Assembly (NCBI GenBank): GCA_964474825.1
Contig: CAYYWQ010000001.1
Location: 820,152 to 884,151 of the forward strand
Length of the DNA stretch: 64,000 nucleotides
Direction: 5' to 3'
Source: an uncultured Candidatus Saccharibacteria bacterium
GTDB lineage: Bacteria; Patescibacteriota; Doudnabacteria; UBA920
Below the pieces are notes generated by a model. The model ran no database searches. It saw only the letters and a list, made by a program, of their open reading frames with translations, and was not told the DNA's origin. Positions within the stretch are counted from its first letter, which is position 1. Each line of letters opens with the position of its first letter. The position numbers were made by a program, and so were the translations under genes. Shown one piece after another: positions 12,148 to 49,023 of this stretch.

Positions 12148-15100
12148 CTAGTTGTGGATTGACACAGAGTTAGTCGGGTAGTTCGGAATATAAGTGGCTG
12201 TTAAGCTGGCGCCGTTAACGTTGTTGGTCTGTTTGACCGCAATGTTATCAGCGTTGCTGTTTACGTCTTTAAACGTAAATCCGGTAGCCGCACCCATTGT
12301 AACGGAGATAGTAGCACCAGGAGAGGCGGCAAATGTACCACCAACAGGCACCTGAATGTTATATGTCTTGCTTGTACCGGCACCAATTGTGTTGTCGGTA
12401 GACAAGGTTACAACAGTGGATCCGGAACCGCCGCTGGAAACTACCACAGCAGTGCTGCTGGCAGTTACACTTTGTCCTGTAGCATCGTCAACTATAGTGA
12501 CGCCTGCGCCGTTAATGATGGTGGTTGAAGCACCGCCAGAAGCGCTAAAGGTCAAAGGCAAGTTCCTGACAATAATATCACCCGCAGCGTTCGCAGTAAT
12601 AGTAACTTTGGCGACAGTTTGTGTGCCTGCAGTTAACAAAGCAGACGGAGCCGCAATGCTAACAGTAGGAGCGCTGCCTACCAAGTTAAAGCTGTTAGTA
12701 GCTGTGTTGTAGTAGTTGTCGTGGGTTGTACCACCGGCAATATACTTAACGTGGGTCAAGTTAACAGTGAATACCTGGTTACCGGTTTTGCCACCGACAC
12801 CAACGTTACCAAGGTTCATAGTAACCGGTACGTCTACACCGCTATAGGTGGTTGGAACAACAATGTTCAAACCAGAAATAGTTGTAGTAGCACCGACTAC
12901 GTTCCCGAGAACGCCGGCCGCAGTAATTCCAGTAACTGGGACTTCGTTAACCGTGCTAGTAGCCATAAAGTCTAACTGAGTAATAGTCAGACCGCCACTA
13001 GCGGCAACAAAGTTAAAGGTACCAGCTGGTTGGTTCTGGCCGCCCGCAATGACAAAGGAGTCGATTGGGGAAGAGGCCTTAAGAGTCAAAGAGCTGATTG
13101 TACCAACACCAACAGTAATGAGCTGACCGGTTACAGAGTTACCAGCAGAAGCAGCGCTCACAGTGGACACGCCTCCGTCAGTTGTTAAGTAAACAGTCTG
13201 GCTGCTGGTTGTACCAATACCCGTACCAGTTAAGCTGGGCTGTAAGGTACCAGAAGTGTTGCTGATGTCAGCATAGACATCAACAGTAGCAGTCTGGTTC
13301 ATAGCCACAGTGAAGTTAACGCTAAACTGGGTGGAAGAAGCGCCGGTCATTGGCGTGGTTCCGCTCGGGAAATCCGGAGTCACCAGGTAAAGGTTAGCAA
13401 TACCGGTGGACGGAGTAATCGAGTTGTTAGCGCCGGCAACAAAGGTGACAGTAAGAGTATTAACTCTTACTCCGTCAGCCTGGCTGGCCTGGATTACGAA
13501 CGAACCAATTTTCTGCTTGGTTAAGTTCGGGGCAATTGTTTGGTTGTTATAAGCAGTATTCTTACCTGTGGTCGCGGAGCTGGCAGAAACAGTCTGGGCT
13601 GTGCCAGTGTAGGTACTACCGGCTGTCGGACCTAAGGTGAAGGAGGTTACGCCCTGGAAAGAAGAAGTGGTGGTTGTCACCAAATCAGCTCTAACCGTGG
13701 CCACTCCGGTGTTGCTTACTAGGGTGTTATCACCCTTAACTGTAACAGTTACAGTCTGGCCGGCCGGGATTGTGAACAAATTGGTCGTGCCATAGGTGTA
13801 AGAAATTACACCGGTACTGTCAGCAGTTGAAGTGGAGTAAAGCGCGCTCTGGGAAGAACCGACGCTACCACCGTTAACATACAAAGAAAGGTTATTGAAA
13901 CCTTCTGTGGCTCCAGCGGAAGCTACAGCTCCAGCCGCGTTCTTGTAAGTCAAAGTGACTTTCAAGGTTTGAACTTTCACATCTTCACCATAAGCCTTCA
14001 TAGTCCATTGGCCTAAGGTTACGTTGGAAGCGTTCTTAACGAACTGGTTTTGGGTGTACGTAGGATCAGTCTGGATGCTGACTGTACCGCTGTTAACAGA
14101 GGTCAAGCCAGGATTTAACTGAACAATGGTCGCACCGCTGCTGCCAGTCAAAGGAACGTTAACGCCGTAGCTTGAGTCCAAGAACAAGGCGTCAGTAGAA
14201 GACTGGATGGTAAATTCGTAGTTGTAGGAAGAACCTTTAACTACATCACCATGAAGTTCAATAGTGTGGCTGCCTGTGTTCAAGTTAACCGGGCTGCCGG
14301 ATAAGTCGAAGATAACCACATTGGTGTTGGCACCGCTGTTCATAACGGAAGCAGTGCTGCCGGCTTGGGAGCCGTCCACCATCAGTTTAAGATTTTGGAT
14401 AGCGTCTGCAGCGACGGAACCAATTTGCTTGAACTGAATGTACTGTAACTTAACAGCTCTCTGGCTGACTGAAACAGTCGTACCCCAGAGGTTAGCATTC
14501 ATAGTGCCGGCATTAATGCTGCCCGCGGTACCAGCGCTGGCGCCGGAACCGGTAATGACACTGTTCATGTTGCTGTTAACGCTCAACTGCACGCTAGCGA
14601 CATCGCTAACCGCGGCAATGTTGAATAAGTTACCAGTAATGGAGGTAGACATTGGGGTGCCGTTGGCAACCGTGTAGGAAGCCAATTGAGCGCCTACTGT
14701 CTGACCGGAAACGGAGCTGGCCACGTCAACTCTCACGCCAATAACGGCAGAGCCATTAACTGTGAACAAACCGTTGGAATTTGCAAAGGTTACCTGTCCG
14801 TTGGAGAACGTACCGGCATCGGTGATGCGGTTGTTGCCCATGTAGAGGTAAACATTGTTGATGCTGGTGTCAGAAGAAACACCAGTTCTCTTAATAACAA
14901 CCTGGGTTACAGTGCCTGTGCCGCTAAAGGCAAAGTGGGCAATGTCAGCGCCAGTTTGGCTACCTCGTGTAGTAACAGAGGAGGAAACCAAGGTGTTAGC
15001 AGCCGGGGTGTCGGAGGAAAGCATAGCGCTTACGCTGCCGTTAACTACCGGAGGCTGATTTGGGTTGCCTGGGTTGCTACCAGTTGTCCAAGTCGGGTTC

Positions 15101-15777
15101 AATTGGCCAGCTTGGCGGGCTACCATGACGCCAGTTTGGGTCAAAGCTTTGTCCGCTGTGTTGGCCGGAACCACGTCGCTGAAGGAATAGCCCCAGCTGT
15201 TGAAGGTGGTAAGGTCAGGAATACCCAATAAGCCGTTGCTGCCGACTAATTGGACTGTACCGCCGTTATTGACCAAAACACCTGTGCGGTGAGCAGCAGT
15301 TGTGTTGTCAATGTTGGAGGTTTTGCTTAAGAAGGAAGAATCACCATACTGTGCGCGGCTAAAGCTAAAGCCGTTGCCGGTGAACACGGAAGCGCTGGTA
15401 AAAGCGGCTTTCATGCCTCCGGTGACCAAGGCACATTCGCCTTTGACATCGGAACCTTTAGTAGCGGTGGCACAGAAGATTTTGCCGTCTTGCGGAGGAA
15501 TGAATCCAGCCGAGTCAACAGGCAAATTGAGGTCATCCGAGTTAGCATCTACTACGGTCGCAAACGAGTTGAAACCATAAGAAGTAAATGCTCCCGCGGA
15601 GGTGTAGGCGCGGCGGGTGCCACTGGAAGTAATGTACCAGATGGTGCCATCCGAGCTTTTGACGTTTGTGCCTACGCCGTGCGCAGCAGCGTGAGCTGCT
15701 AACGGGGCGACTAGGGACGCAACCATCGCGGCAGCGGAACCTACAGCAAAGATTTTCTTTGCGAGAGTATCTTGCAT
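12148..15777 (-). CDS. Large secreted Thr/Ser/Gly/Asn/Val-rich low-complexity surface protein (S-layer or adhesin-like)
   Basis: 1209-aa ORF. Signal peptide MQDTLAKKIFAVGSAAAMVASLVAPLAAHAAAHG. SD AAGGAG upstream. Leader/promoter region of about 680 bp. Confidence 0.6.
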   Translation of the reverse strand: MQDTLAKKIFAVGSAAAMVASLVAPLAAHAAAHGVGTNVKSSDGTIWYITSSGTRRAYTSAGAFTSYGFNSFATVVDANSDDLNLPVDSAGFIPPQDGKIFCATATKGSDVKGECALVTGGMKAAFTSASVFTGNGFSFSRAQYGDSSFLSKTSNIDNTTAAHRTGVLVNNGGTVQLVGSNGLLGIPDLTTFNSWGYSFSDVVPANTADKALTQTGVMVARQAGQLNPTWTTGSNPGNPNQPPVVNGSVSAMLSSDTPAANTLVSSSVTTRGSQTGADIAHFAFSGTGTVTQVVIKRTGVSSDTSINNVYLYMGNNRITDAGTFSNGQVTFANSNGLFTVNGSAVIGVRVDVASSVSGQTVGAQLASYTVANGTPMSTSITGNLFNIAAVSDVASVQLSVNSNMNSVITGSGASAGTAGSINAGTMNANLWGTTVSVSQRAVKLQYIQFKQIGSVAADAIQNLKLMVDGSQAGSTASVMNSGANTNVVIFDLSGSPVNLNTGSHTIELHGDVVKGSSYNYEFTIQSSTDALFLDSSYGVNVPLTGSSGATIVQLNPGLTSVNSGTVSIQTDPTYTQNQFVKNASNVTLGQWTMKAYGEDVKVQTLKVTLTYKNAAGAVASAGATEGFNNLSLYVNGGSVGSSQSALYSTSTADSTGVISYTYGTTNLFTIPAGQTVTVTVKGDNTLVSNTGVATVRADLVTTTTSSFQGVTSFTLGPTAGSTYTGTAQTVSASSATTGKNTAYNNQTIAPNLTKQKIGSFVIQASQADGVRVNTLTVTFVAGANNSITPSTGIANLYLVTPDFPSGTTPMTGASSTQFSVNFTVAMNQTATVDVYADISNTSGTLQPSLTGTGIGTTSSQTVYLTTDGGVSTVSAASAGNSVTGQLITVGVGTISSLTLKASSPIDSFVIAGGQNQPAGTFNFVAASGGLTITQLDFMATSTVNEVPVTGITAAGVLGNVVGATTTISGLNIVVPTTYSGVDVPVTMNLGNVGVGGKTGNQVFTVNLTHVKYIAGGTTHDNYYNTATNSFNLVGSAPTVSIAAPSALLTAGTQTVAKVTITANAAGDIIVRNLPLTFSASGGASTTIINGAGVTIVDDATGQSVTASSTAVVVSSGGSGSTVVTLSTDNTIGAGTSKTYNIQVPVGGTFAASPGATISVTMGAATGFTFKDVNSNADNIAVKQTNNVNGASLTATYIPNYPTNSVSIHN

Positions 15778-16465: not shown

Positions 16466-16539
16466 TGGTCGGGATGCAGGGAATTGAACCCTGTCTACCT
16501 GCTCCCAAAGCAGGCGTACTACCGGTATACGACATCCCG
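16466..16539 (-). tRNA. tRNA-Pro (anticodon UGG), CCA encoded
   Basis: Reverse complement GGGATGT...CTGCTTTGGGAGCAG...GGTTCAATTCCCTGCATCCCGACCA. Cloverleaf with a 7-bp acceptor stem, anticodon loop TTTGGGA. Confidence 0.85.
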
Positions 16540-16609: not shown

Positions 16610-17452
16610 TTACTTAATCAGAGCATTCCAATCTTGAGCAAATTTTTCTAACCCCTTATCTGTAAGTTCGTGATTAACATCATAACTTTCCCATGGCTGG
16701 TCTAAATTTATTTCCTTGTATGGAATTGGCTTAAGATTTTTATTCTCGATTCTAGATTCTAGATTCTTCATTCCAGAAGCCTTCCACTCTTTTAGGACCT
16801 TAAGTGGCACAGTGAGAATATCGGACCCTAGCTCAATTGCTTTAACCATATGCTCTGGGTTGCGAACAGAGGCAGTTAAAACTTCTACATGCCCGTCTCC
16901 GCTGTTATACATTTTTATTATATTTTCAATCAGATCCATGCCATTTTCTCCTCTGTCGTCTAAACGGCCAATGAACGGGGAGACATAAACTTGTCCTTTA
17001 GAAGCGCCCTTGGTAGCCGCATAAATTGCCGCAGCCTGGTCTTGGCTAAAGACCAGGGTCATATTTACCCTAAGACCGTCTTTTACAGCCAATTCAGCGG
17101 CTTTTAGGCCTTCTGAGGTAGTTGGAAACTTAATATGGGCATTGGAAATCCACTGGTTAAACCCTGTTCCCTGCTCAAGCATTTCTTCGGCAGGCGTGTC
17201 CTTGTCAGCATAAACTTCTATAGAAACAGATCCCTCTGGTATTAAGTCCGAAACCCGTTTTGCCACGCTTTCATAAAAATTTAAAATCTCAGCCGCGGAA
17301 AATTTCTTGCCAACAGCGCCGGGGTTTTTGGCAATAAGAGAAGGATTAGTGGTTTGGCCGTCTAAAAAACCAAGCACCTTCAAAGCCTCCCTCGTTTCCG
17401 CCGGATCCCCGCTGTCTAAAAAAATTTTAGTTTTTAAATTTTGGGGCCTCAT
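16610..17452 (-). CDS. tal: Transaldolase / fructose-6-phosphate aldolase family
   Basis: N-terminus KIFLDSGDPAETREALKVLGFLDGQTTNPSL is typical of transaldolase. Confidence 0.8.
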   Translation of the reverse strand: MRPQNLKTKIFLDSGDPAETREALKVLGFLDGQTTNPSLIAKNPGAVGKKFSAAEILNFYESVAKRVSDLIPEGSVSIEVYADKDTPAEEMLEQGTGFNQWISNAHIKFPTTSEGLKAAELAVKDGLRVNMTLVFSQDQAAAIYAATKGASKGQVYVSPFIGRLDDRGENGMDLIENIIKMYNSGDGHVEVLTASVRNPEHMVKAIELGSDILTVPLKVLKEWKASGMKNLESRIENKNLKPIPYKEINLDQPWESYDVNHELTDKGLEKFAQDWNALIK

Positions 17453-17455
17453 GCT

Positions 17456-17923
17456 GTCTTTACTAACTACTAATAGTTACTAATATACTAATCAAGATTT
17501 ACAATCCTTTTATAATGCACACCTCTCGGAGCAAAATAGACTAATATCCCCAATTTTAAATTCTTAGCAACAAGATACTGATAAACTTGTTTAATGTGTG
17601 CCGAAGAAAAATGGTCGCCTTTTTTTAATTCCAATACAATAATATTTTCTATTAAAAAATCAAAAAAGTTTCTGCCAACAATTTTATCCCCAAACATTAC
17701 CGGCGCATACAATTGCTCTGTAAACTTGAATCCCGCTTGCCTTAAAGCTTCTGCCACTGCCTTTTGATAGGTTTTCTCGTCATAGCCATAACCGAGTTGG
17801 TTAAAAACGTTCATCACGCTCCCAACTATTCTATAGCACTCATCTTTATAAACCAAGCCGTCTCTTTTGTTGCCTTCTGCAGTCATTAGTATATTAGTAC
17901 AGATTCGTAGTTAGTAAAGACAG
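17456..17923. repeat. Cassette: two inverted repeats of about 38 bp (TACTAAC family) exactly bracketing the GxxExxY ORF
   Basis: Left 17456-17493 CTTTACTAACTACTAATAGTTACTAATATACTAAT. The reverse complement of right 17884-17923 is CTTTACTAACTACGAATCTGTACTAATATACTAAT. The stop and start codons lie inside the repeat termini. Confidence 0.6.
17488..17886 (-). CDS. GxxExxY-family protein
   Basis: 132 aa. Motif GYDEKTY (G-x-x-E-x-x-Y) and a C-terminal GILVYF region typical of the family. Confidence 0.7.
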   Translation of the reverse strand: MTAEGNKRDGLVYKDECYRIVGSVMNVFNQLGYGYDEKTYQKAVAEALRQAGFKFTEQLYAPVMFGDKIVGRNFFDFLIENIIVLELKKGDHFSSAHIKQVYQYLVAKNLKLGILVYFAPRGVHYKRIVNLD

Positions 17924-17927
17924 AAGA

Positions 17928-18635
17928 CTATCCAAATAGATGCTTGTCTTTGGAAAGCACTTTAATTAACTCGTAAGCTTCCTCAGCGTTGTCTACTAAA
18001 GAGTAAAGAGCCATGTCCTCTTTATTTATTGCTTTATTTTTTTCGTAAACAACTTTTGTTATCCATTCTAATAACGGCTGCCAAAAGGCTTTGTTAACTA
18101 AGATTATTGGTACGGCTTTTATTTTTTTGGTTTGGGTTAGGGTTATCATTTCAAACAATTCGTCTAAAGTACCAAAGCCGCCAGGGAAAAAAACATACAC
18201 CTGGGAAGCGTACTCGAGCATAACTTTTCTGGTAAAAAAGAAAGAAAAGGATTCGTATTCTTTTACGAATTGGTTGGTGCGCTGCTCAAACGGCAGGCGG
18301 ATGTTAATTCCGACCGATTTTCCTCCAGCCTCGTAAGCCCCTTTATTTGCAGCTTCCATAATGCCAGGGCCGCCGCCGGTCATAATGGCAAAACCGGCCT
18401 TGGAAAGCATATTACCAAGCTGCGTGGCTTCTTCGTAAACGCCGTTTTGCAGACCCACCCTGGCGCTACCCATTACGCTCACAGCTTTTTTGTAATGCCT
18501 TAAAAATTCAAAACCCTTAATAAATTCCGCGGTGATTTTGTTTATCATCCACTGCGGAATTTCCCGCATATGCCCTTTACGGACTTTTTCTAAATGCTCA
18601 ATGGGTTTGAATGCAGCTTTTTTTGTTTCAGGCAT
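17928..18635 (-). CDS. LOG-family protein (TIGR00730-like, cytokinin riboside 5'-monophosphate phosphoribohydrolase-like)
   Basis: Motifs [14 protein letters not shown] and [12 protein letters not shown]. Confidence 0.8.
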
Positions 18636-24869: not shown

Positions 24870-25003
24870 ATAAAAAAATCCGCCAAAGCGGATGGATAAT
24901 TTTATCTTCCCCGCGAGGGGCTAGAATTAGCACCGTATCGCCTTTCGGCGGATTGGTTGCTGGCAGGTCATTGGGCTAGTTCCCTAACTGCGCTCTTGAT
25001 AAA
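24870..25003 (-). promoter_or_regulatory. SAM-I (S-box) riboswitch with expression-platform terminator, in the metK leader
   Basis: Minus-strand RNA UUAUCAAGAG...UAGGGAACUAGCCCAAUGA...GCAACC...GGUGCUAAUUCU...GAAGAUAA matches the SAM-I conserved core. It is followed by the hairpin AUCCGC-UUUG-GCGGAU plus a U7 run (24873-24896). Confidence 0.65.
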
Positions 25004-25020
25004 TATTAAGTTGTAAAAAC

Positions 25021-26687: not shown

Positions 26688-26762
26688 GCGGGTATCGTAT
26701 AGCGGTTATTATCTCAGTTTTCCAAACTGATGATGGGGGTTCGACTCCCCCTACCCGCTCCA
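26688..26762 (+). tRNA. tRNA-Gly (anticodon UCC)
   Basis: GCGGGTA acceptor / TACCCGC. Anticodon arm TCAGT-TTTCCAA-ACTGA. T-arm GGGGG-TTCGACT-CCCCC. 3' TCCA. Confidence 0.85.
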
Positions 26763-28612: not shown

Positions 28613-28834
28613 TTAAGTCCTCCTCTAATAAAACAAACTTTAGCAAACAGCTCTATTTATTGCAAGCAATAATAAAAGACGTTTTTGCGAAGAAAAACGT
28701 CTTTTATTATTCTGTATTGTAAACCGTTGACTATGACAGGAGTTAATTTAAATTTGTGTCTTGCGATACAAACTTACATTAACCATAGTCAACGGATCAC
28801 AAAAAAGAAAGTGGGAGAGGGGCGGACGATCTTG

Positions 28835-30006: not shown

Positions 30007-30678
30007 CTCCTCCTCCTTATTTTTCTATAATCTGCGGAAAGGGCGTGGGCAAAATAGGCACTTTAAAAGGGACGCCGACCGTCCCTCTCTTATATTAAAT
30101 TTTGCCAAAACCTTTTCCGCAGACAAATTTTGTAGAAACAAGACTGGCAACTGGCTGGATAACCCTCCAATCGCCAAACTTTTTCCTGCAAACTTATTTT
30201 CACAATTGTGGGTCTAAACAAACGGATGAGGCCAAAAGGTCTAAAGCGACCTCATATAAATTCGCCTTCCTGTTAGGCCCACTATAGTGAAAATAAACTA
30301 AAAACCGTATATTCAATACAGGAGAATCAATTAAAAATTATTCTTGTATGCAATATACGGCTTTATTGCGCCGCCGATTCGGTTTAACGAAATCAGCAGC
30401 ATGTTGTTTGTCCCCACACCAATCTCCATCAAATCTTTTCTAACAATAATTGAATCTCTTAAACTAGTGGGAAATTTTATTCTTAACTAACCTGGTGAAG
30501 ATTAGTGTAGGGACACCCGTATATTCTCCTGCAAAAACAGACGGATACTATATTTGTGTTGTAAAAGAAAAATCATGCTACATTTAGCATGACCAAACAT
30601 TCTACACCTTTTTCACCCTTTTGTCAAGAGTTTTTAAGGCTTTGATAAAAACTTGGCTTATTTAAGATAATATTTTAA

Positions 30679-31101: not shown

Positions 31102-32775
31102 TTAGTAATCCATTCCACCCATACCGCCCATGCCTCCAGGCATGCCGCCTGCTGGGGCTGAGGATTTTGGTTCTGGCTTGTCGACAATTATTGCTTCGGT
31201 GGTAACTAATGTGGAAGCAATGGACACCGCGTTCTCTAAAGCTAAGCGAGTAACTTTAAGCGGGTCAACAATTCCGGCTTTCATCATGTCCGGTTCCTGG
31301 CCTTTGGTCCAATCGGCTTCGTCGTATTTGGTAAAATCATAACCCGCGTGTGTGCCGCCGTTTTGAATGTAGGTAATTACTCCGGTTGGCTCAACGCCGC
31401 TGTTTTGGGCAATTTGCCTAAGCGGTGCTTCCAAAGCTTTTCGAACAATTTTGTATCCGGTCTTTTGCGCGCCGTGGGCTTTGGTCATTTCTTTTTCGAG
31501 CATTGGCGCAATTTTAGCAAGAGCCGCGCCGCCTCCGGCAACAATTCCTTCTTCCACAGCCGCTTTGGTGGCGTTTAACGCATCTTCAATTTTAAACTTT
31601 TTGGCTTTCATTTCCGTTTCCGTAAAAGCGCCAACTTTAATAACGCCCACGCCGCCGGCCAAACGGGCCATGCGTTCCTGGAGTTTTTCTTTGTCGTAAT
31701 CCGAAGTAGATTCTTTAATTTCCGCTTTAATTTGGTTAACGCGGTCTTCAATATTCTTTTTGTCGCCCTGGCCGTCTACAATGGTGGTATATTCTTTGGT
31801 GGCAACAACTTTGCGGGCGCGACCCAGCTGGTTTAATTCAGTCTTGTCTAACTTAAGGCCCATGTCTTCCGAAATAACCTGGCCGCCAGTAAGCACCGCA
31901 ATGTCTTGCAACATTTCTTTGCGCCTGTCGCCAAAACCCGGGGCTTTTACCGCCAAAACATTAAAGGTACCTTTGAGTTTGTTAATGACAAAAGTGGTCA
32001 AAGCTTCGCCTTCCACTTCGTCCGCAATAATAACAATATCTTTTTTACCGCTCTGCGCGACTTTTTCTAAAATTGGCAAAATTTCCTGCACACTGGAAAC
32101 TTTTTTGTCCGTAATTAAAATGTACGCGTCTTCCCAAACAGCTTCCATTCTCTCAGCGTTAGTCACCATGTATGGGTTTACAAAACCTTTGTCAAAGCGC
32201 ATGCCTTTAACCACTTCTTTTTCAAGCCCGGTAGTCTGGCCTTCTTCCACGGTAATAATGCCTTCGTGGCCGACTTCTTCCATAGCTTCGGCAATAAGTT
32301 TGCCAACTTCTTCGTCTAGCGAAGCAATGGTGGCTACCTGTTGGATTTCTTCTTTATTCTTTACGTCTTTTTTTACTTTTATAAGTTCGCTAACGACAAA
32401 CCTAACCGCGCTGTCCATGCCCTTCTTTATTTCGTTAGCTTGGGTTGAGGCAAGAGCCGCAGCTTCAAAGGCTTCCTGGATCATAGTTTGGGCCAGCACA
32501 GTTGCAGTAGTCGTACCGTCACCGGCTGCTTCGTTGGTTTTGTTAGCCACCTCCTGAATGAGTGACGCTCCCACGTTTTCAAACTTGTCTTCAAGTTCAA
32601 TGTCTTTGGCAACGGTAACGCCGTCGTCAGTAATTACTGGACTGCCAAAACCTTTGTCTAAAATTACTGCCTTGCCGGTTGGTCCCAGCGTAACTTTAAT
32701 GGCATTTGCGGCTTTGTCTACACCTGCCTTAATGGCCTGCTTTGCTTCAAAACCGTATTTTATAATTCTGCTCAT
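31102..32775 (-). CDS. groL: Chaperonin GroEL
   Basis: [13 protein letters not shown], the C-terminal GGM repeat, and full-length similarity to GroEL. Confidence 0.95.
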
Positions 32776-32882
32776 AATATTTCTCCGAAATCTCTACTAA
32801 ATACTAAATGAGACTAAAAATACTAAATCTAGAAACCTTCGCTTTCGTATTTTTAGTTATTTTAGTATTTAGTAGAAAATAA

Positions 32883-35093: not shown

Positions 35094-35422
35094 TCGTCAT
35101 AGTCCACTTCTTTGTAGACCTTTAATTTGTGGAAAAATTCCGTGGCGGAAAATTTATACTGGGCCTGAGCACTTTGCCCCGCGCGGTGGGAGTACAATTC
35201 TTTTTTTTCTAAAACTACAGGGCGGTTCTCGCGGATTAATTTAAAACGGCCCGCAGGATTTTCAAAAATTAAAATATCCTGCGTTCCCTGCTTAACAGGG
35301 CCATCCTGTGTGTCCATAATTAAATCTTCAGAGGTAATTTTTACACCCTGAAAATTCTTTTGCGCCGCCTCCACTAATTGTTGCCATTTTTCGTCTGTCA
35401 TAGAGTATTCGCGAATATACAA
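35057..35422 (-). CDS. Hypothetical protein (121 aa)
   Basis: ORF overlapping the downstream gene by 37 nt. Confidence 0.35.
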   Translation of the reverse strand: MYIREYSMTDEKWQQLVEAAQKNFQGVKITSEDLIMDTQDGPVKQGTQDILIFENPAGRFKLIRENRPVVLEKKELYSHRAGQSAQAQYKFSATEFFHKLKVYKEVDYDEWDEITLDKLGL

Positions 35423-35478
35423 ATAAAAGATAATATACGAATTCGAATATTTGCGCTAGATTAGTATATTAGGGATTA

Positions 35479-35709
35479 CTACTGCAGTCCTCCCCCATAA
35501 ATCCCGCTCAGGCTGCTTAAAGACTTCATTACAATAGGAATTAAAATTACCATGCCGAGCAGAGGCAAAACAATAAGCACAATAGTAATATATAACTGCC
35601 ACTTCATGTAAGTCATGGTCTTGTGTGTGTTGTTGTAAATAGCCAAAAGCATTTCGTCAGTCGTGGGCTTTTGCGGCTGCGGGACTTGCTGATTTTGTTC
35701 TGTTTCCAT
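35479..35709 (-). CDS. Small membrane protein (76 aa)
   Basis: Two predicted TM helices. Confidence 0.35.
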   Translation of the reverse strand: METEQNQQVPQPQKPTTDEMLLAIYNNTHKTMTYMKWQLYITIVLIVLPLLGMVILIPIVMKSLSSLSGIYGGGLQ

Positions 35710-36690: not shown

Positions 36691-36706
36691 GAAAAACCTT
36701 TCACCT

Positions 36707-36793
36707 GTCTTTACTAACTACTAATTTTTACGAATATACTAATGCTAGTATTTGGAATTAGTATATTCGTATCCATTCGTAGTTCGTAAAGCC
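36707..36793. repeat. TACTAAC-family palindromic element, cargo-less copy (arms separated by 12 nt)
   Basis: CTTTACTAACTACTAATTTTTACGAATATACTAAT / ATTAGTATATTCGTATCCATTCGTAGTTCGTAAAG. Confidence 0.6.
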
Positions 36794-36868
36794 AGTAAAT
36801 TTATGTTTCCATTATAATTCCTTTTCCTTCACCTGTCTAAAACATCCTAGAATTGTTATAATAACTTT

Positions 36869-38377: not shown

Positions 38378-38474
38378 CTACCGAACTACGAAAACAAAAA
38401 CACTACAGATACCTACAGAAAAGTACTTAATTTCTGTAGGTATCTGTAGTGCAAAAAATCCTTAGTTCGGTAGC
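38377..38474. repeat. CTGTAG-family nested palindrome (outer GCTACCGAACT/AGTTCGGTAGC; inner CACTACAGATACCTACAGAA / TTCTGTAGGTATCTGTAGTG), probable bidirectional terminator
   Basis: Fills exactly the space between convergent stop codons. Confidence 0.6.
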
Positions 38475-39073: not shown

Positions 39074-39092
39074 TTTAATCCTTTTAACTGTT

Positions 39093-39175
39093 TTTACTAA
39101 CTACGAATGCGTACTAATATACGAATTCCAACCTTTAGCATTAGTATATTGGTAAAGATTAGTAGTTAGTAAAGG
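39093..39175. repeat. TACTAAC-family palindromic element, cargo-less copy
   Basis: TTTACTAACTACGAATGCGTACTAATATACGAAT / CATTAGTATATTGGTAAAGATTAGTAGTTAGTAAAGG. Confidence 0.6.
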
Positions 39176-39183
39176 CAGAAGTG

Positions 39184-48534: not shown

Positions 48535-48927
48535 AAATTTTTATTTATTTTTTTTTAAAGACTAAAGTAACCTATTTTAAAAATCCTTTGGGCTGCAATT
48601 TTAGTATTTCGGCATCTTGTCAGAAAAAATTTTTCAGCTTAGCTTTGGCTAAACCTCAAAATTTATTTCTGCCGATCTGCTCGAAATCCTAAAATTTCGC
48701 CTCTCAAATTATTTTTCAAATAGGTTAGCAAAAAATTTAGCTCTCCAATTGTCAGAGCCAATCGCTAATCTTTAAAATCTTCTTTTCTTAATTGTGTTTT
48801 GTTTTTGTTTCTTAATCCGCGATTTTGGCGGATTTAGATAAAGTTTTCTTTGCCTTTTTGGCAATCGACCTTTGAAAACCTTGTACATGTATTATAGCAC
48901 AGCTGCGGAAAAAAAGCAAGAGGTTTC

Positions 48928-49016
48928 CACTACAGATGCCTACAGAATAAAAAAACTTCCGCCCAATCAGGATGGAAGTTTCTGTAGGTATCTGTAGTGA
49001 ATTTTTTCTGTAGCTC
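48928..49016. repeat. CTGTAG-family palindrome (CACTACAGATGCCTACAGAA ... TTCTGTAGGTATCTGTAGTG) plus TTCTGTAGCTC tail, immediately 3' of ftsZ
   Basis: 20-bp arms with a structured 31-nt loop. Third copy of the family. Confidence 0.6.
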
Positions 49017-49023
49017 CGTAGCC

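Follow-up and report, generated by a model that had tools for sequence, protein, structure and literature searches.

The Correia/NEMIS miniature inverted-repeat transposable elements (MITEs) of Neisseria are short, non-coding intergenic palindromes with terminal inverted repeats, which occur in many copies, are co-transcribed and form hairpins. In REPIN-RAYT systems, which are lineage-specific and vertically inherited, a repeat brackets a single-copy gene in inverted orientation and is elsewhere dispersed through intergenic DNA in hairpin-forming doublets. Homing endonuclease genes, either free-standing or borne by introns, include that of a PD-(D/E)XK enzyme, I-Ssp6803I. Leptospira is among the bacteria with intervening sequences (IVSs) in 23S rRNA that bear an open reading frame (ORF). 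The subject of this article is a 470-bp segment in which a gene of the GxxExxY family is bracketed by inverted repeats, referred to below as arms. It lies in a stretch of 64,000 nucleotides, the window, from contig CAYYWQ010000001.1 (assembly GCA_964474825.1) of an uncultured Candidatus Saccharibacteria bacterium. The arms, the gene that they enclose, here called the cargo, and empty copies of the palindrome form one family that is dispersed across loci, genomes and phyla. With moderate confidence, we read the segment as a copy of a selfish mobile palindromic cassette composed of arrays of heptad repeats and a PD-(D/E)XK nuclease gene, with MITE-like derivatives that have lost the ORF.

The IVS of Coxiella burnetii is 428 nt long, has a 28-bp terminal stem and an S23p ORF, and is excised by RNase III (PMC4990558). 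The element described here resembles 23S rRNA IVSs in its size of ~0.4–0.5 kb, in a terminal inverted-repeat stem around one ORF of ~120–130 amino acids (aa), and in the existence of ORF-less versions. It also shares with them a sporadic distribution suggesting horizontal transfer; the origin and mobility of IVSs are unexplained (PMC4990558). A further likeness is that a sister cassette, found in the same spacer of another genome, between a LOG-family gene and tal, carries the IVS protein (IVP) family PF05635. The differences are that all copies found here lie between protein-coding ORFs and none in an rRNA helix, that the cargo is a PD-(D/E)XK nuclease and not a four-helix bundle, and that the arms are heptad arrays conserved across phyla. 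Among insertions in rRNA genes of the candidate phyla radiation (CPR), IVP ORFs have been recorded in 22 cases, with no PDDEXK_3 listed (PMC11270868).

With MITEs the empty copies share a small size (91 bp), terminal inverted repeats (39-nt arms), the lack of coding capacity and an occurrence in multiple copies; two clear and one or two diverged copies are present in the 64 kb of the window and ~60 elsewhere. A gene-carrying partner with the same ends (17454–17923 in the window, and loci L097 and L074) and an intermediate form (L052) exist, but the protein of the partner is a nuclease of 132 aa and no known transposase. In contrast to MITE families, which are usually specific to a species or genus, the arms are nearly identical across phyla, and the element shows no target-site duplication. 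As in REPIN-RAYT systems, a gene is flanked by inverted copies of an otherwise scattered repeat, but the gene encodes a PF13366 PD-(D/E)XK protein and not a Y1 HUH transposase. The likeness to homing endonuclease genes lies in a nuclease ORF that sits in the tolerant loop of a sequence also existing as an ‘empty’ allele. Unlike those genes, the element includes no self-splicing intron or intein, has many dispersed putative targets rather than one conserved gene. In its mode of operation it would resemble both a MITE with an autonomous partner and a free-standing homing endonuclease gene. In the searchable literature we found no description of GxxExxY genes as palindrome-bracketed cassettes, nor of the TACKAAY palindrome family (K = T or G) to which the arms belong.

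The filled cassette and the empty palindromes of the window

The cassette is situated between a LOG-family gene (upstream, stop at 17928) and tal (downstream, start at 17452), with all genes on the minus strand. Its parts are the following.

17454..17923, no strand assigned: complete filled cassette of 470 bp (arm, GxxExxY gene, arm), between the LOG-family gene and tal
17885..17923, minus strand: start-proximal arm, which in minus-strand reading is CTGTCTTTACTAACTACGAATCTGTACTAATATACTAAT, then G
17454..17492, plus strand: stop-proximal arm, CTGTCTTTACTAACTACTAATAGTTACTAATATACTAAT, which includes the TAG stop of the cargo (17488–17490)
17488..17886, minus strand: GxxExxY / PDDEXK_3 gene, 132 aa, in the same orientation as the flanking LOG-family gene and tal

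The inverted repeat (17454–17492 and 17885–17923) has arms of 39 nt that are 90% complementary and 392 nt apart. The initial annotation, made from the letters of the window, had described near-identical inverted repeats bracketing the 132-aa ORF, with the ATG and the stop codon made by the repeat termini, and both descriptions are borne out. The TAG lies within the left arm, and the ATG (17884–17886) consists of the AT that ends the start-proximal arm and the following G, so that two of its bases are common to the arm. This arm, followed by G, is of the ‘alpha’ type that is also present in empty copies. The variable spacer of each arm, put at 5 nt in that annotation, is 3 nt long.

The same arms stand back to back elsewhere in the window, as had been reported, in two ORF-less palindromes of 91 bp each; their loops measure 13 nt rather than 12. 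Together with two less well preserved structures they are listed here, none with a strand assignment.

36705..36795: empty palindrome B, arms 36705–36743 and 36757–36795, 13-nt loop, in the divergent spacer between fpg and relA-spoT
39088..39178: empty palindrome C, arms 39088–39126 and 39140–39178, 13-nt loop, between the stop of a peptidyl-prolyl isomerase (PPIase) gene and the start of ndk
32792..32878: diverged palindrome of TACTAAA heptads, arms ~33 nt, loop ~16 nt, in the spacer upstream of the gene at 31102..32775 (minus strand)
35405..35490: candidate decayed remnant, with the innermost heptads alone recognisable (ATATACGAAT ... ATTAGTATATTAG), E = 3–10, not significant alone

The earlier inventory of copies thus contained the filled cassette, B and C, and overlooked the related palindrome at 32792–32878. 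What it called a degenerate copy at 35405–35490 gives weak partial matches and is at best a decayed remnant. The genes that flank the copies of the window are tal, the LOG-family gene, fpg, ndk, relA/spoT and the PPIase gene.

Patterns for the two half-sites match nine times each in the window, compared to expectations of 2.0 and 0.16, and none of 100 shuffled sequences reached nine matches. A profile made from the arms of other genomes recovers exactly six arms in the window, with E values from 2e-13 to 3e-11. The Rfam scan of the window returned nothing at the palindromes, no rRNA and no intron.

Arm sequence and dispersal of the family

Aligned arms have the consensus CTGnCTTTAC-K-AAC TAC-K-AAT nnn TAC-K-AAT A TAC-K-AAT, which amounts to four TACKAAY heptads and a free 3-nt spacer. 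In 115 arms T and G share the K position in a ratio of about 50:50, and A and C are infrequent there. A further test is given by 46 arms that do not match the search pattern, in which agreement with the consensus is hence unforced; it amounts to 92% identity at the fixed positions. Between the cassettes of the window and of L097, whose cargo genes are saturated at synonymous sites, the arms differ at spacer and K positions only. Within one element, agreement between the two arms at K2–K4 is at chance level, and the 3-nt spacers of paired arms are not complementary (0.34 of 3 positions identical). These two observations speak against a constraint from RNA pairing on the arms, and their conservation is a matter of primary sequence rather than of compensatory pairing.

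A database holding one genome per prokaryotic species was scanned with the pattern ACTACNAATNNNTACNAATATACNAAT, which occurs at 94 loci, compared to roughly 0.3–6 expected by chance, as estimated from the base composition of the pattern. Organism titles are available for 80 of these loci. Most are Patescibacteria, namely Doudnabacteria, genomes labelled Saccharibacteria, Moraniibacteriota, and Falkow-, Roizman- and Nomurabacteria. Bacteroidota account for 12 of the 80, on contigs of up to 1.5 Mb, a length which indicates that they are not contamination from the CPR. The copies in the window belong to a dispersed family: the arms are found at unrelated loci and in different phyla, including Patescibacteria and Bacteroidota. 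Since the arms are AT-rich and made of short words, chance or the low complexity of AT-rich intergenic DNA might have produced them. That explanation is refuted by the shuffled sequences, by profile E values of about 1e-12 and by the 94 loci in other genomes. Among 2.9 million viral contigs the arm is present in a single one, and a phage origin was set aside on this ground.

A profile search yielded ~60 complete empty palindromes with a modal loop of 10–14 nt. Several metagenome-assembled genomes (MAGs) hold at least five copies, and empty copies outnumber filled ones by ~10:1. None of 60 empty copies is inside an ORF; the neighbouring genes are co-directional for 46 of them, divergent for 6 and convergent for 4. 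The copies take up their spacers, beginning 0–7 nt past the upstream stop codon and ending 12–21 nt before the next start. About one in four of the genes beside them encodes a ribosomal protein.

The fold predicted for the element, as RNA or single-stranded DNA, is a stem of ~38 bp interrupted by single mismatches and a 3x3 internal loop; its energy lies between −28 and −36 kcal/mol, with z-scores between −4.8 and −10.1. The great stability of these folds, the conservation of the internal loop, the placement between cistrons, the frequency of ribosomal protein neighbours and an architecture like that of the Coxiella IVS, which is excised by RNase III (PMC4990558), would be in keeping with another explanation. 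The palindromes might be RNA hairpins useful to the host in its operons, as RNase III sites, stabilisers of mRNA or intercistronic regulators, and the ORFs secondary invaders of their loops as in rRNA IVSs. We regard this as quite unlikely. No covariation between the arms was found, the stem positions being invariant and the variable positions unpaired. In addition, the occupancy of orthologous spacers is sporadic, with different families in relatives, near-identical arms are present in different phyla at unrelated loci, and both orientations occur.

Filled copies, syntenic spacers and the derivation of empty copies

GxxExxY genes are enclosed by the same arms at sites unrelated to the one in the window. 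These include spacers of a type IV secretion-like operon (L097 and L099), a site in L076, and one in L017, where the gene is frameshifted; in L074 a GxxExxY cassette occupies the same LOG/tal junction as in the window. Distant homologues have heptad arms of the TACGAA type, in Bacteroidetes at the junction of the methylmalonyl-CoA mutase and CoA-transferase genes (L184 and L187), and elsewhere after ftsZ (L189) and after efp (L192). Arms of the TAC(N)AA type are present at 17 of 17 GxxExxY genes inspected. To score bracketing, the 100-nt upstream flank of a gene was compared with the reverse complement of its downstream flank, with the following results.

GxxExxY genes: median 50; at least 30 in 10 of 14
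IVP (PF05635) genes: median 30; at least 30 in 4 of 7
Other ORFs: median 16; at least 30 in 19 of 593

Bracketing by inverted repeats is specific to the cargo genes. Other high-scoring candidates for cargo were checked and turned out to be mainly ribosomal protein or housekeeping genes between two separate palindromes. A small GIY-YIG gene in L022 was discarded, its flanking repeats being direct and not inverted.

When orthologous loci are compared, as the initial annotation had recommended, the occupancy of syntenic spacers is found to vary at the LOG/tal and fpg/relA junctions and in the spacers of the type IV secretion-like operon. At LOG/tal, L104 (69% aa identity in LOG and 71% in tal) has a 123-aa four-helix-bundle gene in arms made of GGATACAAG words. 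In PHROGs its product matches a family of Avd, the accessory protein of diversity-generating retroelements (DGRs), and it is similar to the IVP cargo (PF05635) of L024. The same junction in L105 has neither a GxxExxY nor an IVP cassette. In the secretion-like operon of L099, GxxExxY genes occupy three successive spacers; in L097 the first of these has a GxxExxY cassette, the second a decayed palindrome and the third an IVP cassette. The fpg/relA spacer of L009, the closest relative (76–79% aa identity), contains a palindrome from a different word family, and the ndk/PPIase spacer of L023 contains a TACKAAY palindrome, as does that of the window (copy C). Exact look-ups of tal (no record) and ndk (same sample only) gave no strain-level empty sites.

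Some further details of these loci can be added. The cassette at the LOG/tal junction of L104 (1486–2061) has a left arm in which GGATACAAG/GTATGCAAG words extend over ~130 nt; its inverted complement forms the right arm. The operon shared by L097 (3945–6210) and L099 (3943–6606), both from related Patescibacteria, contains genes for TrbL, PrgI, TraC-like and VirB4/TraG-like proteins, and the word families of the arms differ between the two. The fpg/relA spacer of L017 (4415–5036) is GC-rich and 622 nt long, shows no convincing ORF and could contain a structured RNA or some other element.

The relation of empty to filled copies is visible in the arms and loops. Across genomes, the arms of empty copies are of two types, ‘alpha’ (spacer CTT or TTT, then G) and ‘beta’ (spacer CGG or TGG, then T or C). 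The arm next to the start codon of filled copies belongs to the alpha type, its next G completing the ATG, and this polarity is kept in empty copies. A clean internal-deletion intermediate is present in L052 (7376–7544), where intact arms surround a 94-nt loop in which the gene is reduced to about 28 initial codons (ATGACTGCA..., as at the start of the window gene) and its last ~12 nt. The empty palindromes are best read as ORF-less derivatives, which would later have spread as units since a separate consensus is recognisable among their loops.

There is weak support for cargo swapping within identical arms, because L024a, considered as a case of an IVP gene inside TACGAAT arms and rejected, has one full arm and a partial second one. 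Composite structures in L099 (4393–4500), L076 (2286–2389) and L192 (770–1440), with the order arm-gene-(arm-loop-arm) or with the gene between two full palindromes, suggest repeated insertion beside existing arms.

The GxxExxY protein, its proposed role and the alternatives

The protein encoded in the window matches PF13366, PDDEXK_3, with an E value of 4.7e-27 (95.1 bits, cut-off 22), and TIGR04256, GxxExxY, with 3.9e-27 (94.9 bits, cut-off 35). PDDEXK_3 has been classed as a family of unknown function with multiple horizontal transfers (PMC3424549). In the window protein the GxxExxY motif, G34-E37-Y40, reads GYDEKTY. The residues G32, E37, Y40, D76, E86 and K88 do not vary among 61 homologues, and G34 hardly does. 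The candidate catalytic residues E37, D76, E86 and K88 make up a complete, intact E...D...ExK site. The protein has the restriction-endonuclease-like alpha/beta fold, and the predicted local distance difference test score (pLDDT) of its AlphaFold2 model is 91.8; among solved structures in the PDB it has no sequence relative. Divergence between cassettes amounts to 0.11–0.43 at non-synonymous sites (pN) and 0.65–0.86, which is saturated, at synonymous sites (pS). Where dN/dS can be estimated it is about 0.08–0.36, and the GxxExxY cargo is under purifying selection. The PF13366 family comprises 17,624 clusters at 50% identity (E ≤ 1e-3). Many of its GxxExxY proteins are ~265 aa long with two tandem domains (e.g., P0142, P0143 and P0149), which suggests that the working unit may be a dimer. 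With regard to defence systems, PADLOC returned only a weak match (7e-4), to a defence-associated, reverse transcriptase (RT)-linked PDDEXK model.

We infer that the GxxExxY nuclease is the mobility enzyme of the cassette. T/G (keto) degeneracy, as at the K positions, is typical of protein-DNA recognition sites. We propose that the heptad arrays are recognised in duplex DNA by the nuclease, which would probably act as a dimer. Cleavage would fall on or close to empty palindromes or arms; the gene would then spread in a homing-like manner through recombinational repair templated by a filled copy, and the short palindromes would be moved in trans. In mRNA, the arms would pair into the stem of ~38 bp with its 3x3 internal loop, which would join the flanking cistrons. 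The stem may undergo RNase III cutting, as in rRNA IVSs, which would make insertion inside operons tolerable.

The cargo genes could also be passengers in defence, addiction or nucleic-acid processing, on palindromes that are themselves non-autonomous and moved in trans by an unrelated recombinase or transposase. We consider this rather unlikely, although it would account for one architecture with two unrelated cargo families, GxxExxY and IVP, and for the numerical excess of the empty copies and their own loop consensus, if they spread as empties. The weak match to the RT-linked PDDEXK model, the match of the IVP cargo to Avd of DGRs and the vertical retention of the cargo at LOG/tal could be cited in its favour as well. 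However, no transposase with these ends was found in ~700 kb of loci. The sole Y1 transposase in these loci, a RAYT-like gene in L096, has unrelated flanking hairpins, which also disposes of a RAYT/REP explanation. The near absence of the arm from viral contigs argues in the same direction. Moreover, all 17 GxxExxY genes are tied to heptads of the TAC(N)AA type, and IVP genes are found mostly with other words, a difference that fits a specific relationship between protein and arm.

Several observations weigh against the reading of the segment as a selfish cassette moved by its own nuclease. Sister cassettes of the same architecture carry an Avd-like four-helix-bundle protein and no nuclease, so that the mobility enzyme may be something other than the cargo. 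On plasmids of cultured bacteria, distant GxxExxY genes are accompanied only by short inverted repeats or by none. The cargo proteins of the window and L074 are 71% identical and the products of the flanking genes 65–73%, which would fit long vertical retention of the cassette at LOG/tal and possibly a function at the level of the host. Different families occupy the same spacers among relatives; spacer-specific hot spots are possible, and the model does not explain them. The loci were picked by the arm pattern or by close homology, which biases the sample. A few of the 80 arm loci with organism titles are in MAGs of Bdellovibrionales, Nanoarchaeia or Bathyarchaeia, labels that may reflect binning errors. 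Finally, no direct repeat is found beside the CTG...CAG ends, in the window or in aligned copies, and a classical DDE-type insertion route is unlikely for that reason; to fix the exact ends of the element would need an empty site with identical flanks. The initial suggestion of a MITE-like mobile cassette is in agreement with the empty and filled forms, the dispersal, the spacer polymorphism and the L052 intermediate.

The cargo ORF points in the same direction as the upstream host gene in 21 of 21 cases. Of the empty copies that can be classified, 14 are sense and 7 antisense (Fisher p = 0.009), and another 20 are ambiguous. Since filled copies are always sense to the host operon, the cargo ORF is presumably expressed by read-through of the operon, and there would be no constraint on orientation once the ORF is lost. 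The copies in the window had been noted to lie immediately upstream of minus-strand start codons, from which it was suggested that they supply a promoter or 5′ leader to the downstream gene. The placement is correct, but it merely reflects the filling of spacers in arrays of minus-strand genes. In support of the suggestion, copies end 12–21 nt upstream of start codons, and a promoter-like site at 36839..36811 (minus strand), outside copy B, would put this palindrome in the 5′ leader of fpg. Nevertheless, we find it highly improbable, its leader half being the less improbable of the two. Pairs of sigma-70-like −35 and −10 hexamers with a spacing of 16–18 nt are absent from every copy and in overall counts do not exceed those in shuffled sequences. 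Furthermore, 46 of 56 empty copies lie between co-directional genes directly past a stop codon, and empty copies occur in both orientations. A terminator scan gave no site inside the elements.

A broader proposal can be put forward more tentatively, and we would call it possible rather than probable. GxxExxY proteins in general might be the mobility nucleases of unrecognised miniature palindromic cassettes that cross phyla, with arms read by a dimer of ~130-aa subunits, and the S23p/IVP IVSs of rRNA might be their sister elements. If this is true, PF13366, a large family of unknown function, would acquire a concrete and testable role. It would also be tied to the ORF-bearing rRNA IVSs, the origin and mobility of which have been open since the early 1990s, and a new kind of mobile element would provide a mechanism for their origin and spread. 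Such selfish elements would be of a type able to settle in the very short spacers of streamlined genomes, among them those of ribosomal protein and secretion operons, without disrupting them. Because Patescibacteria and Bacteroidota share the conserved 39-bp arm, it may serve as a marker of horizontal exchange between them, and it is a candidate recognition site of a compact sequence-specific nuclease.

A number of minor observations were made in the course of this work. Two of the distant GxxExxY genes are on plasmids. In L198, from Gemmatirosa, a GC-rich palindrome of ACGCGGAT words is situated just downstream of the gene (~1880–1960), and in L199, from Treponema, an 11-nt inverted repeat, ACACGGATTCG, is present at both ends of the gene (flanks of 1507–1896). 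These flanking sequences echo the ACG(N)AT theme of the heptads. The RAYT-like gene of L096 (6783–7451, minus strand) encodes a Y1 (IS200-like) transposase of 222 aa and has GC-rich GTACGACGTCGAACGTCGTAC hairpins, a classical REP/RAYT arrangement. Spacers of Patescibacteria also contain GC-rich hairpin repeats of the form GTCATTCC(C/T)G...GGGAATCC, as in L105 (3184–3291) and L079 (1170–1308).

The window has a second palindrome family, CACTACAGATRCCTACAGAA, with copies at 38401–38451, where a perfect 21-bp stem with a 9-nt loop lies between the convergent relA/spoT and ndk genes, and at 48928–48999, inside a 489-nt spacer (48535–49023). Inverted repeats of 23–26 nt with loops of 43–114 nt are found in unusually long spacers at 28710–28809, 30031–30123, 30194–30296 and 48568–48727. 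The matches in the Rfam scan of the window were a SAM riboswitch (24899–25005, minus strand) and two tRNA genes (16469–16539, minus strand, and 26688–26759, plus strand). Lastly, the ORF at 12148–15777 (minus strand) encodes 1209 aa rich in Ser, Thr, Gly and Ala, with an N-terminal hydrophobic segment (MQDTLAKKIFAVGSAAAMVASLVAPLAAHAAAHG...), and looks like a large surface protein.

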